Shown here piece after piece: positions 1 through 4,786 of a stretch of DNA of 4,786 nucleotides. The notes beneath the pieces are model-generated. The model saw only the letters and a program-made list of their open reading frames with translations. It searched no databases and was not told where the DNA came from. A program made the position numbers and the translations under genes. The stretch is from a virus (Duplodnaviria; Heunggongvirae; Uroviricota; Caudoviricetes): IMG/VR virus record IMGVR_UViG_2565956721_000003. One strand, 5' to 3'. Every line of letters begins with the position of its first letter. The first letter of the stretch is position 1.

Positions 1-555
1 AAGCAGAAAAAGCTTATTATGCTTCCATCGGAAACGATGATCTGGCAGCCTGAGTTCACAGATAAAACACTCTCCAGGAAACCCGGGGCGGTTCATTAGA
101 TGCTTTTTGCTGACTAGCATATTTACAGCATCACGAAGCGGAGTCCTGTCATCAACAGATGTTTTCTTCCGTGCATTTGCTGCCTCTCCCTTTGTCCAGT
201 AGTCATGCAGCACAGTAAAGCATTCTTCCTGGTACTGAATCAGTTTATCGCGGATGTCAGCACGAACTTTCTCAGGGTTGATGCTGAACAGCCATCCATT
301 TAACTTCTTCAAAGGAAGGCAGAGTAGCTTACGAAGCTTACCATCAGCGGCAACCATGTTCATATGAACACAGTTGAATTTGCTAATCTGCTTCATGAGT
401 TTTGTTTGCTGCGTTGACCAGCTCATTCCGAGGTTTTCAACGATTGGCTTCATCGCAACATATGCAACTCCGGCAGCCATGGCGGTGATAATTTGCTGAC
501 CGTTGAATGGCACGTAAGAGGTGTTCACTGCTTCTAAAATTGCTATACTATTCAT
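1..555 (-). CDS. ant: Phage antirepressor Ant (AntA-type N-terminal domain); 5' portion only, gene continues past the window start
   Basis: Minus-strand frame is open from the ATG at 555-553 to position 1 (185 codons, no stop), translated by hand as [60 protein letters not shown]...[20 protein letters not shown] lies about 10 nt upstream of the ATG. The N-terminus matches my recollection of P22 Ant and AntA-domain antirepressors, and the gene sits downstream of an arc-like gene as in P22 immI. Not in the ORF track because it runs off the window edge. Confidence 0.8.
541..549 (+). promoter_or_regulatory. Candidate extended -10 promoter (TGcTATACT) firing antisense to the ant start; possible Psar analogue
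   Basis: Plus strand 541-549 reads TGCTATACT, a TGn + TATAAT-like hexamer with one mismatch. No good -35 was found. A start about 7 nt downstream would fall at about 556, opposite the ant ribosome-binding site. Confidence 0.3.
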
Positions 556-637
556 GTTGGTTTTTCTCCACGGATTTACCGACAACCGAAGCCCTGACTG
601 TTCCAGCAGTTGGGGCTTCACTGTTTTGATTTCTTTG
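556..637 (+). ncRNA. Candidate small antisense RNA (sar-like) complementary to the ant ribosome-binding site
   Basis: A candidate promoter at 541-549 and a plus-strand hairpin with T-run at 588-637 bracket a roughly 70-80 nt transcript antisense to the ant Shine-Dalgarno and start codon. In phage P22 a 68-69 nt antisense sar RNA from the arc-ant intercistronic region is established. Inference from sequence signals only. Confidence 0.35.
588..637 (+). terminator. Plus-strand intrinsic terminator-like hairpin followed by a T-rich tract
   Basis: GAAGCCC (588-594) pairs with GGGCTTC (613-619), with possible inner CTG/CAG pairs, followed by ACTGTTTTGATTTCTTTG (620-637). On the minus strand the same hairpin is not followed by a T-run, so the signal is orientation-specific. 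Confidence 0.4.
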
Positions 638-787
638 CCGCATCAAGCATCACTTCTGAAAACGTGCGCTTGCCACTGAATACTCTTTCTCTTCTCAATT
701 TTTCGTTCGTGCCAAATGATTCGCCATGAACAAAATTTGGTCTTAAAATGGTAATCGCAATCTCTTTGACTACTGCATCCAAGCGAA

Positions 788-940
788 TCACACCGTTACC
801 CCCTCTCTCTTCAGGCTGTCTATCAGGCGCTTGATAACCTCTGAGTTAAACGACCTGCACTCTTCCTTTGCCCTGCTACCGATAGCATCCTTTAACGACT
901 GCGGCATCCTTACCAAAATCTTACTTATTTCTTTCTCCAT
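788..940 (-). CDS. arc: Arc-like ribbon-helix-helix repressor (50 aa)
   Basis: Within track ORF 788..976 the likely start is the internal ATG at 940-938, preceded by GGAGGG with 5-nt spacing. Product MEKEISKILVRMPQSLKDAIGSRAKEECRSFNSEVIKRLIDSLKREGVTV has the size and the 'xxRSxNSE' core of P22 Arc (NGRSVNSE in P22) and lies immediately upstream of ant. Confidence 0.8.
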   Translation of the reverse strand: MEKEISKILVRMPQSLKDAIGSRAKEECRSFNSEVIKRLIDSLKREGVTV

Positions 941-976
941 GTTACCCTCCACGCAAACAACTCTTTTCGAATACAA

Positions 977-1041
977 AAGATAGCAAAGTGAGTATATCTA
1001 GTCAAAATTTTTTTGCATACACTTTGCTATCAAATTGAATA
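977..1041. promoter_or_regulatory. Divergent arc/ant (Pant-like) and mnt (Pmnt-like) promoter region with a perfect 12-bp inverted repeat, candidate operators
   Basis: Minus strand: TTGACT (complement of 1000-1005), 17-bp spacer, TATCTT (complement of 977-982), a good sigma70 match about 35 nt upstream of arc. Plus strand: weaker TTTGCA/TTGCAT (1012-1018) and TTGAAT (1035-1040) upstream of mnt. GATAGCAAAGTG (979-990) and CACTTTGCTATC (1020-1031) are exact reverse complements 29 bp apart; one half overlaps the Pant -10 and the other lies in the Pmnt spacer. Confidence 0.5.
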
Positions 1042-1054
1042 CCAAAGGTGTTAT

Positions 1055-1303
1055 ATGGCAAAGGGTGTGTCAATTTCTCCAACTACGGTAAGAATCCCTG
1101 AATCTTTACGCGAGGCTCTTGCTGTCAGAGCATCAAAAAATGGTCGCTCTGTTAACTCCGAGATCGTCATGATTTTGCAAGCCGCGATTGATGAAGATAG
1201 GTCGCCAAAGTCAGTTGAGTCATTTGCTCAGCAAGAAGCTGATAAATTCAAAGAGGCGCTACTTGAGACGCTAAAGACCATGTATGCTAAGGATGAAAAA
1301 TAA
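1055..1303 (+). CDS. mnt: Mnt-like ribbon-helix-helix repressor (82 aa)
   Basis: Within track ORF 1013..1303 the likely start is the ATG at 1055, with AAGGTG 4-5 nt upstream. Product MAKGVSISPTTVRIPESLREALAVRASKNGRSVNSEIVMILQAAIDEDRSPKSVESFAQQEADKFKEALLETLKTMYAKDEK matches P22 Mnt in length (82 aa), in the NGRSxNSE motif and in the C-terminal TLKxxYxK segment. It is divergent from arc as in P22 immI. Confidence 0.8.
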   Translation: MAKGVSISPTTVRIPESLREALAVRASKNGRSVNSEIVMILQAAIDEDRSPKSVESFAQQEADKFKEALLETLKTMYAKDEK

Positions 1304-1837
1304 TGCTGCACACAATTCATTTCTTATGCCCTGTTAACACTGCCACTGTTGGGCAACTTCAGAACCACTGTCTCACCGCATTATCTCAAGGCGCAACTGA
1401 ATTAAATATCCATATATCAAGTCAGGGAGGGGAAACTGCTTGGCTTTACTGCGTATAACTTTCTTAAGTCACTCCCTGTTACCGTTAGAACTCACAACAT
1501 AAGCAATGTTGAATCCATAGCTAATATCGTTTTCCTGGCTGGCTCAGAACGTTTCGCAAACCCATTATCAAGATTCCTGTTACATCCTCTATTATGGTGC
1601 TTTGCCTCCCCAGCCGCCGACCATGCCAGATTGAGAGAGTACGGGAAATGCCTCGATAACGATCTTGATCGCTTCGTTGAGACGTTCAATATCGACATCG
1701 GAACCCATATTAGGTGGGCATCCCTGATAGCAGACTCGACCATTTTGGATGCTAACAAGGCTCTTGAGCATGGCATAATTAATTCCATAAAAACTGCAAG
1801 GCTGGCATCCAATCAGGCAAACTGGTGGGTTGTTTGA
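1303..1837 (+). pseudogene. ClpP-like (S14-type) serine protease gene, start overlapping the mnt stop (TAATG), interrupted by a single-nucleotide frameshift near 1440-1441
   Basis: Frame 1 (1303-1458) gives MLHTIHFLCPVNTATVGQLQNHCLTALSQGATELNIHISSQGGETAWLYCV*. Frame 2 (open 1406-1837, includes track ORF 1631..1837) gives ...GFTAYNFLKSLPVTVRTHNISNVESIANIVFLAGSERFANPLSRFLLHPLLW...DANKALEHGIINSIKT.... Joined, this aligns with remembered E. coli ClpP across [47 protein letters not shown] and APEAVEYGLVDSI, with Ser/His/Asp at the expected triad positions. Removing one T from GCTTGGC (about 1439-1443) restores ...GGETAGFTAY.... Confidence 0.6.
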
Positions 1838-1862
1838 TGGGTAAATCATGATTACTCCTTAT

Positions 1863-1887
1863 AAAAAACCCACCTGACGGTGGGTTT
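1863..1887. terminator. Bidirectional intrinsic terminator between the convergent protease gene and the toxin operon
   Basis: AAAAAA (1863-1868), CCCACC (1869-1874), loop TGAC, GGTGGG (1879-1884), TTT (1885-1887). On the minus strand the stem is followed by six T, so termination is strongest for the minus-strand operon ending at 1886; on the plus strand only three T follow. Confidence 0.6.
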
Positions 1888-2335
1888 AGTCAAACATAGT
1901 GTTTCTAAAGTCTCTCGCATACCCTGCTAACACTCTCATTCTATTATGATTGTTAGCAGACATGTGAGCTACAGGATGAAAAAGAGCAATCAATGAATAC
2001 CTGTTCTCATCAAAAAGATTTTGTGCATAAACGAGAGCGGTATTGGATGTTTTATGCCACTGCAACTTTTGCGGTGTGCTGATATCTGTGCCATTTTTTA
2101 TTGGCTCAAATTTATTTTCACCAATTGCTAAATGAAGGTGCATAAGGCCTGCATCTTCAATATCAGGAGGTCGATGATAAGAGGTGTCTCTGCCAAAATA
2201 GCTGGGCAACGTTCCCGTAGACTTGTAGATGATAAAATCATCTACAAGTGTTTGTTTTAAATCAGGAAACTCAACAAAAACCGGGGAGAAAAAATAGTCA
2301 AAACTATCCTGATTATATTCCACGGTTACTTGCAT
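1886..2335 (-). CDS. YafO-family toxin (ribosome-dependent mRNA interferase family), 149 aa
   Basis: Track ORF 1886..2335. FIIYKSTGTLPSYFGRDTSYHRP, LMHLHLAIGENKFEP and ALVYAQNLFDENRYSLIALFHPVAHMSANNHNRMRVLAGYARDFR align with E. coli YafO as I recall it (FISYKRDGVLPDIFGRDALYDDS, VAHIHLANENNPFP, HLVYCQGAFDEQAWLLIAILKPEPHKLARDNNQMHKIGKMAEAFR). The ATG at 2335 is 8 nt after the upstream gene's stop, with GAGG overlapping that stop. Confidence 0.8.
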   Translation of the reverse strand: MQVTVEYNQDSFDYFFSPVFVEFPDLKQTLVDDFIIYKSTGTLPSYFGRDTSYHRPPDIEDAGLMHLHLAIGENKFEPIKNGTDISTPQKLQWHKTSNTALVYAQNLFDENRYSLIALFHPVAHMSANNHNRMRVLAGYARDFRNTMFD

Positions 2336-2343
2336 GTTTTACC

Positions 2344-2910
2344 TCAGTGGAAGTTACCAGAGTGAAACACACGAGTCCCGTGCTCAGCAAGCGCACGCAA
2401 ACCAGCCATATCTACGGAACTATCAAAAACAACCGGAACACATGAGCGTTGTTTAATAAGACTATTCAGGTTGGTTACGGCAGATCTGGCATCAGCAACA
2501 ACGATATAGATATCTCTTGCGATCTCTTTAAAATCAGCAGAAGCTTCTTTGAATACCGATTTCATTGCCCCTTCAAGTCCTCTCAATTGATGCTCTATCA
2601 ATCGAGACTTTTCTGGTTCAATGATAGACAACACATTGTCTACATTCTCATCGGTAGCGTTTGCAAGAACACGATAAGCGTATTTCAGCATTCGAGACAA
2701 TTCTTTAATCGAAGACACCGCCTCATGAAGCTCATCATTAGCCCGTTCACTGCTGAATGAGGATTGATGGTAAGCGTGCTGAACGTTATCAGTAACAACC
2801 ACCTCACAACTGAACGCAGAAGCTTGCTGTAATAGCAAACCTATTGCGACTCCAGCTTTGGCAGCGTTCAAGCTAAACATTTCATCAATCCCATTAGTCT
2901 CATTGCTCAT
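2344..2910 (-). CDS. Hypothetical 188-aa protein encoded immediately upstream of, and coupled to, the YafO-like toxin gene; candidate atypical antitoxin or partner
   Basis: Track ORF 2344..2940; preferred start is the ATG at 2910-2908, preceded by AAGGAGG with 5-nt spacing (the track's Met at 2940 is a TTG with no RBS). Product MSNETNGIDEMFSLNAAKAGVAIGLLLQQ...GLRALAEHGTRVFHSGNFH has no recognisable RHH or HTH N-terminus and no family I can name. It is roughly twice the size of the known YafO partner YafN (97 aa). Confidence 0.7.
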   Translation of the reverse strand: MSNETNGIDEMFSLNAAKAGVAIGLLLQQASAFSCEVVVTDNVQHAYHQSSFSSERANDELHEAVSSIKELSRMLKYAYRVLANATDENVDNVLSIIEPEKSRLIEHQLRGLEGAMKSVFKEASADFKEIARDIYIVVADARSAVTNLNSLIKQRSCVPVVFDSSVDMAGLRALAEHGTRVFHSGNFH

Positions 2911-2977
2911 ACAAACCTCCTTCTTATCGGAGATTATCAATAGCTATGCATCCATTGAATACACGCTATGCGCAATA

Positions 2978-3006
2978 AGTTTACGTCACGTGATATCATT
3001 ATGCAA
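2978..3006 (-). promoter_or_regulatory. Candidate sigma70 promoter for the 188-aa/YafO-like operon, with palindromic candidate operator in the spacer
   Basis: Minus strand: TTGCAT (complement of 3001-3006), 17-bp spacer, TAAACT (complement of 2978-2983), about 60 nt upstream of the ATG at 2910. The spacer contains overlapping 8-bp palindromes TCACGTGA (2986-2993) and TGATATCA (2991-2998). Confidence 0.35.
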
Positions 3007-3085
3007 CCACCGTTCTATCACCGACTAACTTTACTCCCACTCCTATACATCATCTGGTATCCTGCGCAAAACTAAGGAGGTTGGT

Positions 3086-3436
3086 GTGAATGCTCAGTCT
3101 GTCATCATGGTTTTCCTTGGGCTGATTGTCGCAAAACTATATCCAGACTGGTGGAAAGGGGCATTAGCTACTGTCGCCATCTATTTGCTTTTATCCATCG
3201 TTAAGCGATCACTCGCTGAGACCGTAAATCAAGCAAAACGTTTCTCATTTAAGAGTTTAATAAACTATGTTACTGGGCTTATTTTTTGCCTTTCAATTCT
3301 GATCGCTTCGGCTTTTTTGCCCGTATCAATAGCTAATTTTTTTGGCGCACCATATGAGGTAGGTTATCTATTCTCTGTTTCCTGTCTTGCCATTGCTCTT
3401 CTTTACCTGTGGACGAGATCAAAGAATAAAAATTAG
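3086..3436 (+). CDS. Small integral membrane protein (116 aa, about four predicted TM helices); candidate superinfection-exclusion or abortive-infection effector
   Basis: Track ORF 3086..3436 with GTG start and AAGGAGG (3074-3080) at 5-nt spacing. Four hydrophobic stretches (SVIMVFLGLIVAKLY, GALATVAIYLLLSIV, LINYVTGLIFCLSILIASAFL, YLFSVSCLAIALLYLW) and a basic C-terminus RSKNKN. It occupies the position between mnt and gene 16 where P22 carries sieA; I could not confirm sequence similarity to SieA from memory. Confidence 0.65.
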   Translation: MNAQSVIMVFLGLIVAKLYPDWWKGALATVAIYLLLSIVKRSLAETVNQAKRFSFKSLINYVTGLIFCLSILIASAFLPVSIANFFGAPYEVGYLFSVSCLAIALLYLWTRSKNKN

Positions 3437-3453
3437 CCATCCGTGGCTGCCAG

Positions 3454-4691
3454 TTATTGAGCTTCTTTTTGTGATGCCTGTGCGACTCTGGTGAGCGATT
3501 GTGTGACCGTACTGATCGCTCTGTCATATGCTGTGCTACCTTTTGGCGTATTTGCCAGACGTAACAAGGCATTTCGTATAACAGGGCTTTCGTATGCCTT
3601 CGCAGCTCCTCCTACGACACCAGCAGCAGGAACAACAAACGCAGCCGTTTTTAGCATCCCCGCTAATACTGCTGCGTTTATGATGCCACCACCAACTAAC
3701 AATCCATAAAGCTGCTGACCATTTAAGTTTTGAACGTTCGCTTTTGCCGCGTGTCTTGTATCGTTGAGGTATTTAATAACGCCGTCCAGTTCCTTTCCAT
3801 GTACGCCTTTAAAGAAAGTTGCTGATTGCTTCCTGTTCCGGTGTAACGCATTAATAAACTTTTCAACACTAATATTTCCAGACGGATCAGTCGCCTTATC
3901 TACAGCATTCTGAACTATGGCTGCTCGTGCGTTTTGCCTACCATTGTCATCCAGAAGCCTGTAAAGCTGAGAACGTTCTGATGGGTTTTGGCTAAAAACG
4001 AGTTTTGTTACATCCTCAGGTGTAGCCTTGCCGCTGGCTATTGCCTTTTGAACGCGCGTTCTTCCCATCATGTCATTGAATCTAGCCCATGAGCGATCAA
4101 CCCTAGACATATTGGCAGCTTCTTCTGAGCCTAGTTTTTGGGATACTGCTTTTTTCATATCCGCTGTATATGCCTTGTAGACAATATCGCTGGCTTTCTG
4201 GAGCGTGTCTTTATCAACAGTCTCGTTTGAATTCATGAACCGCTTTCGAAGGTCAGTTCTGTTTTCTCTCGCCAGACGCAGGTCATTGGGTCCGCTGGTG
4301 ATATCGTCTTTAAATTGCTGCAAGACTTTTACCGCGGCTCTATCCTGAGATTTGCCCGGGCGGCTTAACACGGCAATCTGATTGTCGATAGCTTTTACCG
4401 TGTTTGAGAGATCGACAGGGGTATCCCCCATAGCGTCAATTATGCGGTTATATCGCTTTCCTGCTGCCTCAATGAATTTTTGTTGCCCTTTAGTCGCAGA
4501 TTCATAAAGCTGTTTATCAGAAATGCCACCCAGACCATCGCTAAATGTTCTGACTAAATTTTCTCGTGCTTGTTGTTGATTCAGCCGATTCTTACCGGTT
4601 CCAAAAAAAGGAACTCTTTCGCCTAATGTCTGAGCCTGACTCTGCATAAAGGTTTTATCTTTCAGCGTGTCACTGGTCATTAACGGCAGGT
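3454..4691 (-). CDS. Phage late protein, probable DNA ejection/injection protein (P22 gp16-like by position), 3' portion; 5' end interrupted by an IS element
   Basis: Track ORF 3454..4680 (408 aa). The frame stays open upstream of the ATG at 4680 through the IS boundary and stops only at 4717-4719 inside IS sequence, so the native N-terminus is missing. A glycine-rich hydrophobic segment (GLLVGGGIINAAVLAGMLKTAAFVVPAAGVVGGAAKA) sits near the C-terminus. Assignment to gp16 rests on synteny with P22 (gene 16 lies next to the sieA/mnt side of immI) and on the size deficit (about 410 of roughly 600 aa). Confidence 0.5.
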
Positions 4692-4786
4692 TGAACCGCC
4701 CCGGGAATCCTGGAGACTAAACTTCCTGAGAAAGAGGTAAACAGGATGACTAAAAATACTCGTTTTTCCCCCGAAGTCCGTCAACG
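4692..4786 (+). mobile_element. IS3-family insertion sequence (IS629/IS1203-like), left terminal inverted repeat and start of orfA; continues beyond window
   Basis: TGAACCGCCCCGGGAATCCTGGAGACTAAAC... from 4692 matches the IS3-family left end as I recall it (TGA terminus), followed by AGAGG and the ATG at 4746. Confidence 0.65.
4746..4786 (+). CDS. IS3-family transposase OrfA, N-terminal 13 codons only
   Basis: Translation MTKNTRFSPEVRQ(R) matches the OrfA N-terminus of IS629/IS1203-type elements from memory. AGAGG lies upstream of the ATG. Confidence 0.65.
   Translation, partial: MTKNTRFSPEVRQ

Follow-up and report, generated by a model that had tools for sequence, protein, structure and literature searches.

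A predicted four-span membrane protein encoded by an exchangeable cassette at the sieA site of P22-like prophages

Genes and features of the locus

The window, that is the whole stretch of 4,786 nucleotides analysed here, is the immI region of a P22-like prophage (genus Lederbergvirus), the variable "ant moron" lying between genes 16 and 9 (Table 1). The match to the sar RNA family (RF00262) confirms its identity as P22 immI region. From position 90 to 4692, the sequence is identical to that of the tRNA-Arg prophage of E. coli S88, except for one substitution and a 2-bp deletion. Both window ends match an IS3-family transposase gene; we take these end sequences to resemble the ends of IS629, both copies being in the same orientation. 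The elements cut ant at one end and gene 16, at 4693, at the other, which makes the prophage a remnant. As one aligned piece, the whole window was not found in any complete E. coli genome of the collection. The 4.6-kb segment with its IS3-family ends has the appearance of a composite-transposon-like block.

The gene 16 remnant is convergent with the 116-aa ORF, and its S88 counterpart is annotated in RefSeq as a P22-gp16 family phage DNA ejection protein of 670 aa. Among the other genes of the region, the ClpP-like protease gene overlaps the stop codon of the Mnt-like gene (ATGA, 1300-1303), and a 2-bp deletion at 1441 relative to S88 results in a frameshift in the window. This immI coupling of a ClpP-like gene with an Mnt-like repressor is itself unusual. 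In the divergent operon, the YafO-family toxin (PF13957 YafO_toxin, E 3.4e-22) is preceded by a 188-aa protein (phrog_8416, E 2.6e-96) and not by a YafN-type antitoxin.

Table 1. Position and strand of the features of the window
Feature	Position	Strand	Basis or remark
IS3-family transposase gene matches	1-89 and 4693-4786		window ends
ant remnant			last in minus-strand order, beyond sar RNA
sar antisense RNA	556-622	+	Rfam RF00262, 83.9 bits
arc	940-788	-	order of region
ClpP-like gene and Mnt-like gene	1055-1837	+	order of region
ClpP-like protease gene	1303-1837	+	
Divergent two-gene operon, 188-aa protein then YafO-family toxin	1886-2910	-	profile matches
Variable part of 175-bp intergenic region	2911-3054		not conserved with the cassette
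Conserved 5′ element TGGTATCCTGCGCAAAACTAAGGAGGTTGGTGTG	3055-3088	+	SD AAGGAGG 3074-3080; GTG 3086-3088; possible extended -10
Putative promoter sequence within 5′ element, TGGTATCCT			
116-aa ORF, family name TM4_116	3086-3436	+	GTG start
3′ boundary motif CCATCCGTGG	3437-3446		directly after stop codon
Gene-16-type DNA-ejection protein, 3′ part	3454-4692	-	phrog_770 'DNA transfer protein', E 1.6e-124

The original prediction described a 116-codon ORF with a GTG start and a strong ribosome-binding site, and we found both as described, AAGGAGG standing five bases ahead of the GTG. The product is 100% identical to B7MGX2_ECO45, and also to WP_011703616.1 once the latter is extended to the GTG, this RefSeq entry being a 'hypothetical protein' of 109 aa that starts at ATG 3107. 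Comparative data favour GTG 3086 as the true start. Relatives with 37-38% identity display an MN[AGY]Q start at the aligned GTG position and have I or T as residue 8; Pluralibacter-type loci carry an ATG exactly at the position of the window GTG; and the GTG equivalent to 3086 opens at least 13 ORFs that are unrelated to one another. These three features argue for the GTG as the real start. The RefSeq start would also remove half of helix 1.

Comparison with the relatives likewise indicates that this ORF is a genuine coding gene. The dN/dS values of 0.32-0.53 obtained against the group with 88% identity point to purifying selection on the protein, and 15 columns remain invariant down to 37% identity, the most conserved stretch across the family being the N-terminus, helix 1 and the turn LIVAKLYPD(W)W. 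A chance ORF or a decaying remnant instead of a functional gene could be suspected, given the absence of a known domain and the 'hypothetical protein' of RefSeq with its other start, but is hardly credible in view of these values, of the length, four hydrophobic segments and charge pattern kept by the relatives, of the perfect SD, and of an ORF that exactly fills the interval between conserved 5′ and 3′ boundary elements.

The four hydrophobic helices and short basic tail first noticed in the translation are borne out by the Hessa scale, by AlphaFold2 and by the charge pattern, and they are kept across the family; the membrane assignment rests on these three lines and not on a dedicated predictor such as TMHMM. 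Hydrophobic segments lie at residues 5-19, 25-39, 62/64-78 and 95-109. All full-length family members (9/9) exhibit four segments near or below zero on the Hessa scale, helix 1 of the window protein being borderline at +0.88. AlphaFold2 places helices at 3-18, 22-48, 55-85 and 90-115 in a weak model (pLDDT 66); the models built from 7 sequences (pLDDT 57.5) and from 11 sequences (66.2) are both too weak for fold inference. The loop 40-61 carries a charge of +3 to +6 and the tail TRSKNKN one of +2 to +4; loops 1 and 3 have almost no net charge, and the positive loop and tail are conserved throughout the family. According to the positive-inside rule, this conserved pattern suggests an N-in/C-in topology with very short periplasmic loops. 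By hydrophobicity and charge, the TM4_116 protein is thus predicted to be polytopic, with four membrane spans.

Scans of Pfam, PHROGs, NCBIfam and PADLOC with the 116-aa protein gave nothing above threshold, a profile search of PDB sequences gave no match at E <= 1, and Foldseek against BFVD none with E < 1. No homologue was found by tblastn in any isolated phage among 50,697 phage records, no relative by a pattern scan of one genome per species, and no paper citing the accession numbers of the protein in the literature. The 19 clusters returned by a word-based homologue search show at least 71% identity in every full-length case. Among 1.84 billion protein representatives, an exhaustive HMMER search found seven, all traced ones belonging to Enterobacterales, and added only four distant representatives to the word-based search; where a source is named for these, it is Serratia fonticola or Pluralibacter gergoviae. 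The Pluralibacter-type loci contain, immediately 5′ of the TM4_116 relative and in the same orientation, another small ORF that encodes a hydrophobic segment (locus coordinates L140 1729-2037 and L141 1687-1995, plus strand); it is listed with 102 aa and is probably shorter, starting at an internal ATG. The gene region is matched in about 280 of 5,426 complete E. coli genomes (~5%), mostly of extraintestinal pathogenic lineages, and APEC O1 carries the gene at 100% identity. TM4_116 is best filed as an orphan family, a non-homologous newcomer among the prophage membrane proteins at the sieA site.

Boundaries and cargo of the sieA site

The assignment of the gene to the sieA position proved right. 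The identical gene of E. coli S88 has the P22-gp16-family ejection gene, with which it is convergent, on one side and mnt/arc/ant/tailspike on the other. Homologues are also present in the equivalent position of other prophages: in 17/17 IMG/VR loci, as well as in a Serratia-type contig, they are located between the gene 16 and gene 9 homologues and are convergent with gene 16. Phage As3, which has the P22 arrangement, carries an annotated superinfection exclusion gene convergent with its gene 16 homologue, and the 34 bases ending in the GTG of this sieA are the same as window 3055-3088, one variable base aside. The type B sieA of E. coli HS has a diverged copy of the same element. No SieA homologue was found in the 18 loci examined that carry the 116-aa gene.

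This 34-bp 5′ element is common to P22-type sieA, SEN22 gp15 and an unannotated 62-aa ORF of phiv205-1, again with one variable base. Exact matches occur in at least 120 IMG/VR viral contigs. The ORFs starting at its GTG fall into at least 13 unrelated families, and the flanks upstream of about -40 into at least 12 unrelated types; since conservation from -31 to +3 is imposed by the search pattern, the evidence is this diversity on both sides. The 116-aa ORF starts at the GTG of the element TGGTATCCTGCnCAAAACTAAGGAGGTTGGTGTG. Of the element, the 88%-identity variants keep only GG(A/G)GGTTGGTGTG, and the 37-39%-identity relatives have another upstream sequence and an ATG start.

At its other end, beside the end of gene 16, the stop codon of the ORF abuts the motif CCATCCnTGG. 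In the window this motif is part of a weak hairpin with the sequence AGCCA-TCCG-TGGCT (3435-3448), after which a T-rich stretch comes on the minus strand. Among the matches listed, it is found at most 30 nt from the stop in 66 of 116 cassettes, representing 9 of 13 families, mostly with zero spacing, and its 69 occurrences in 1.19 Mb compare with about 9 expected. The 88% group has it after the gene as well, and in the 39% relatives it is shifted downstream by two bases. The same 5′ element before at least 13 unrelated ORF families, together with the 3′ motif, indicates that the gene sits in an exchange site. At the level of sequence comparison, the sieA site is such an exchange site and the 116-aa gene one interchangeable cassette bounded by the two elements.

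The cassette families comprise SieA type A, a 129-aa secreted protein, three families with an N-terminal helix and a coiled coil, two-helix proteins of 62 and 75 aa, anchored proteins of 149 and 106 aa, proteins of 99 and 68 aa with signal peptides, a soluble protein of 140 aa, and TM4_116. A membrane segment or signal peptide is present in 12 of the 13 families, among the matches listed. The 62-aa cassette was considered as orf62 of phage L and rejected, being absent from L and ST64T. ST64T itself displays, between gene 16 and mnt and on the strand of gene 16, an unannotated ORF with a lipoprotein-like signal (…FLAGCATATK…; locus coordinates L146 3428-3730, plus strand). Under the name "ant moron", this variability was reported by Villafane et al. 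(2008, PMC2629481), who regarded the cargo genes as unique and without known function; a figure of that work shows two prophages, APEC-1 and UTI-1, that belong to the carrier group of the 116-aa gene. The boundary elements and the catalogue of at least 13 families are absent from PMC2629481 and PMC8022706, and literature searches brought up no further work on them.

The 5′ element may also include a promoter. It holds TGgTATCCT (3055-3063), a possible extended -10 with 4/6 hexamer matches plus the TG, 22 nt before the start codon; a scan for the sigma-70 promoter consensus on the plus strand from 2850 to 3520 gave no site. In phage BTP1, a small ORF at the corresponding place likewise has a perfect TATAAT 22 nt ahead of it. 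We suppose that the cassette would be transcribed in the lysogen from this extended -10, with an mRNA leader of about 15-20 nt. For sieA, the promoter PsieA was reportedly defined by Hofer et al. in 1995. In P22, 85 bp of upstream DNA are enough for single-copy sieA function (PMC10883804).

One gp16 C-terminal type (at least 80% identity) precedes five different cassettes, including SieA, in different genomes, so that cassettes are generally exchanged independently of gene 16. Beside TM4_116, a single gp16 C-terminal type was observed in all loci examined, and the two have diverged in step, with cassette/gp16 C-terminus identities of 100/100, 88/95-96, 39/64 and 37/63%. Cassettes other than TM4_116 were not seen with this gp16 type above 67% identity; a related type (63-67% identity) accompanies the 106-aa cassette, for example in phage N7. 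This linkage is compatible with functional coupling and also with simple physical linkage.

Possible roles of the TM4_116 protein

Kinship with P22 SieA, left open by the original prediction, finds BLASTP, hhalign and the motif check all against it. The best BLASTP match to SieA type A covered 32 residues at E 0.29, and when the family profile (11 sequences) was aligned by hhalign with a SieA set of nine type A proteins and one of type B, the probability was 0.2% (E 0.3). In the alignment of types A and B, FxRYPxEAxxFNK is invariant (F145, R147, Y148, P149, E151, A152, F155, N156, K157); this motif is absent from the 116-aa sequence and its relatives. The negative Pfam result says nothing on SieA, whose model PF26849 is not in the Pfam set scanned. 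On the strength of these comparisons, a SieA homologue of type A or B was rejected.

Our best guess, to which we would give a probability of about 40%, is that the TM4_116 protein blocks DNA entry by P22-like phages at the inner membrane, as an analogue and not a homologue of SieA. A block of DNA delivery appears the most likely role from the published functions of the site occupants, the predicted membrane location and the gp16 linkage. The protein would insert N-in/C-in, with the conserved YPDWW turn and the PYEVGY loop facing the periplasm, and would disturb, at the inner membrane, the gp20/gp16 conduit through which incoming P22-like phages deliver their DNA, so that this DNA would stay out as it does with the unrelated SieA. 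Both site occupants with a published function, SieA and STnc6030, exclude P22-like phages. The predominance of envelope-type families (12/13, among the matches listed), the sieA position, the 5′ element common with sieA type A and, in diverged form, type B, and the lack of co-occurrence with SieA go in the same direction. Against this proposal, comparisons of sequence, profile and fold detected nothing similar among exclusion proteins, SieA included, and position alone leaves the function unfixed, the cassettes being structurally very diverse and one of them (140 aa) soluble. Phages L and ST64T, long held to be sie-minus, also have small ORFs here (PMC8022706). Moreover, the gp16 linkage may only reflect physical hitch-hiking, the related gp16 of N7 having another cassette, and some of the supporting data are modest: the promoter is a 4/6 hexamer with TG, the consensus scan is null and the AlphaFold pLDDT is 66.

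It is possible, if on the unlikely side, that the gene is an envelope 'moron' with another job, which would have no effect on P22-like DNA entry. As with HK97 gp15, its product could hide or modify an inner-membrane component of the host that unrelated phages exploit; alternatively, it could modify envelope physiology in a way that benefits the host. The secreted, lipoprotein-like, single-pass and polytopic proteins held by the site argue against one common target, the gene has stayed intact in a decayed prophage with broken gene 16, ant and clpP-like genes, and the family occurs in some 5% of complete E. coli genomes. However, it is found only beside ejection-protein genes of P22-like prophages and never with another gp16 clade, and the two occupants whose function has been published both act on superinfection by P22-like phages.

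An improbable role is that of a holin-like or abortive-infection membrane effector, which would permeabilise the membrane upon an infection trigger. Small size and four helices would suit it, and the only weak matches obtained are to holin families (Phage_holin_3_6 at 13.7 bits; LydA holin as top BFVD match, E 1.2, TM 0.29). Yet these matches are far below threshold, as is typical of hydrophobic composition; for a pore former, constitutive start signals would be risky; and no sensor partner is consistently adjacent. With 13.7 bits against a cut-off of 28.4 and a gene located outside the lysis cassette, membership in Holin superfamily III (Phage_holin_3_6/LydA) was rejected. Prophage-encoded GtrA-like flippases, of about 120 aa with four helices, resemble the 116-aa protein in size and helix number; this assignment was rejected as well, Pfam at E <= 0.1 giving only two sub-threshold matches and gtr genes being absent nearby.

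A function together with the divergent YafO operon, for instance as membrane partner or immunity factor under a common control region, was suggested by the gap of 175 bp in the window and in S88-type prophages. The gap itself is as first described (2911-3085, with the divergent ATG at 2910), but the tie to the operon did not stand: the YafO/188-aa operon accompanies the 116-aa gene in only 6/17 loci and is absent from 11/17, which makes the divergent arrangement incidental. As conservation is limited to the last ~40 bp before the start codon and the same 5′ element serves unrelated genes with other neighbours, we consider such a partnership to have a very slight probability and rejected it on co-occurrence. 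The 188-aa/YafO pair is a mobile module: of the prophages that carry this cassette, only some have it.

Comparison with other systems of the site and of DNA-entry block

The second occupant of the site with a published function, STnc6030 of BTP1, was described by Owen et al. (2020, PMC7067206) as a non-coding RNA, antisense to the gene 16 end. It is highly expressed in lysogens and ensures phage-specific exclusion of BTP1; all reported escape SNPs change residues of the gp16 C-terminal end, and only ORFs of more than 60 aa were ruled out (PMC7067206). STnc6030 has the same place and orientation as the 116-aa gene. Unlike the TM4_116 locus, the corresponding region of BTP1 is only a 155-bp gap, without long ORF and without 5′ element. 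Inside STnc6030, we observed a 23-codon hydrophobic ORF in the orientation of sieA, with its own SD, a TATAAT 22 nt upstream in BTP1, and an overlap with the gene 16 end. It reads MERDLLNFVFLIFGLVVGKLLFA in BTP1 (NC_042346; locus coordinates L144 3371-3442, minus strand) and MNRDLLNFAFLIFGIVVGRLLFA in ST64T (locus coordinates L146 ~3287-3358, minus strand), with 7 synonymous and 4 conservative codon differences between the two (78% nucleotide identity). Conservation of this ORF, escape SNPs that all change gp16, and the exclusion of only the longer ORFs make a peptide effector possible.

On a broader and decidedly speculative view, which we hold to be rather unlikely in its full extent, the site would be a bounded exchange port: a 5′ element of about 34-40 bp, with its own promoter, RBS and GTG, and a 3′ motif of about 10 bp would allow at least 13 unrelated small envelope proteins to be swapped. 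TM4_116 would then stand among several inner-membrane proteins that block DNA entry without being homologous, each of them adapted to one gp16 C-terminal type, and STnc6030 might belong to the same class via its conserved 23-residue membrane peptide. What SieA requires to stop DNA entry has been stated as unexplained (Leavitt et al., PMC10883804); sieA is present in only 22 of 66 sequenced P22-like phages (Leavitt et al., PMC10883804). SieA is the sole characterised protein of this site. TM4_116 and the other cassette families constitute a ready set of candidates for exclusion or envelope modification, with one expression signal in common. If several unrelated membrane proteins block the gp16/gp20 conduit, their comparison would reveal the requirement for stopping DNA entry. 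The conserved boundaries are also of use for annotation: they correct the start of the present gene and support the 164-aa GTG start of P22 sieA.

Among phages of other groups, HK97 gp15 and T4 Imm are small inner-membrane proteins proposed to block DNA entry. This view is established background and is also covered by reference 8 in PMC10883804. The TM4_116 protein shares with these two its small size, its origin from a phage or prophage, its predicted membrane character and the proposed block of genome entry at the inner membrane. In contrast, similarity to them was not detected (Pfam, PHROG and PADLOC below threshold), and helix number and phage group differ.

The closest comparison is with SieA. 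This inner-membrane protein of 162-212 aa, with three helices in type A and four in types B and C, blocks DNA injection by P22-like phages, and escape mutations map to gp16 and gp20 (PMC10883804). For SieA of P22 and HS1, which excludes P22-like phages, escape changes were obtained in the gp16 C-terminal region, and FxRYPxEAxxFNK was singled out as conserved C-terminal cytoplasmic motif (Leavitt et al. 2024, PMC10883804). The start codon of P22 sieA was called uncertain, giving 162 or 164 aa (Leavitt et al., PMC10883804). In As3 (sieA at locus coordinate L002 2532) and in all type A loci, the GTG of the 164-aa version is also the first codon of 12 or more further, unrelated cassettes, a point in favour of the longer form in P22. 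The TM4_116 gene resembles sieA in its site in P22-like prophages, in being convergent with gene 16, and in its 5′ element and GTG start; both proteins are small and polytopic, SieA having been shown to be in the inner membrane and the 116-aa protein being predicted to lie in a membrane. Unlike SieA with its 162-212 aa, the new protein has only 116, and its four predicted helices are close-packed with very short periplasmic loops, whereas type A SieA has three and a loop of about 65 residues. Its top conserved motif, AKLYPDWW, lies at the predicted periplasmic turn between helices 1 and 2, while that of SieA is cytoplasmic. In the loci examined, the two genes are mutually exclusive.
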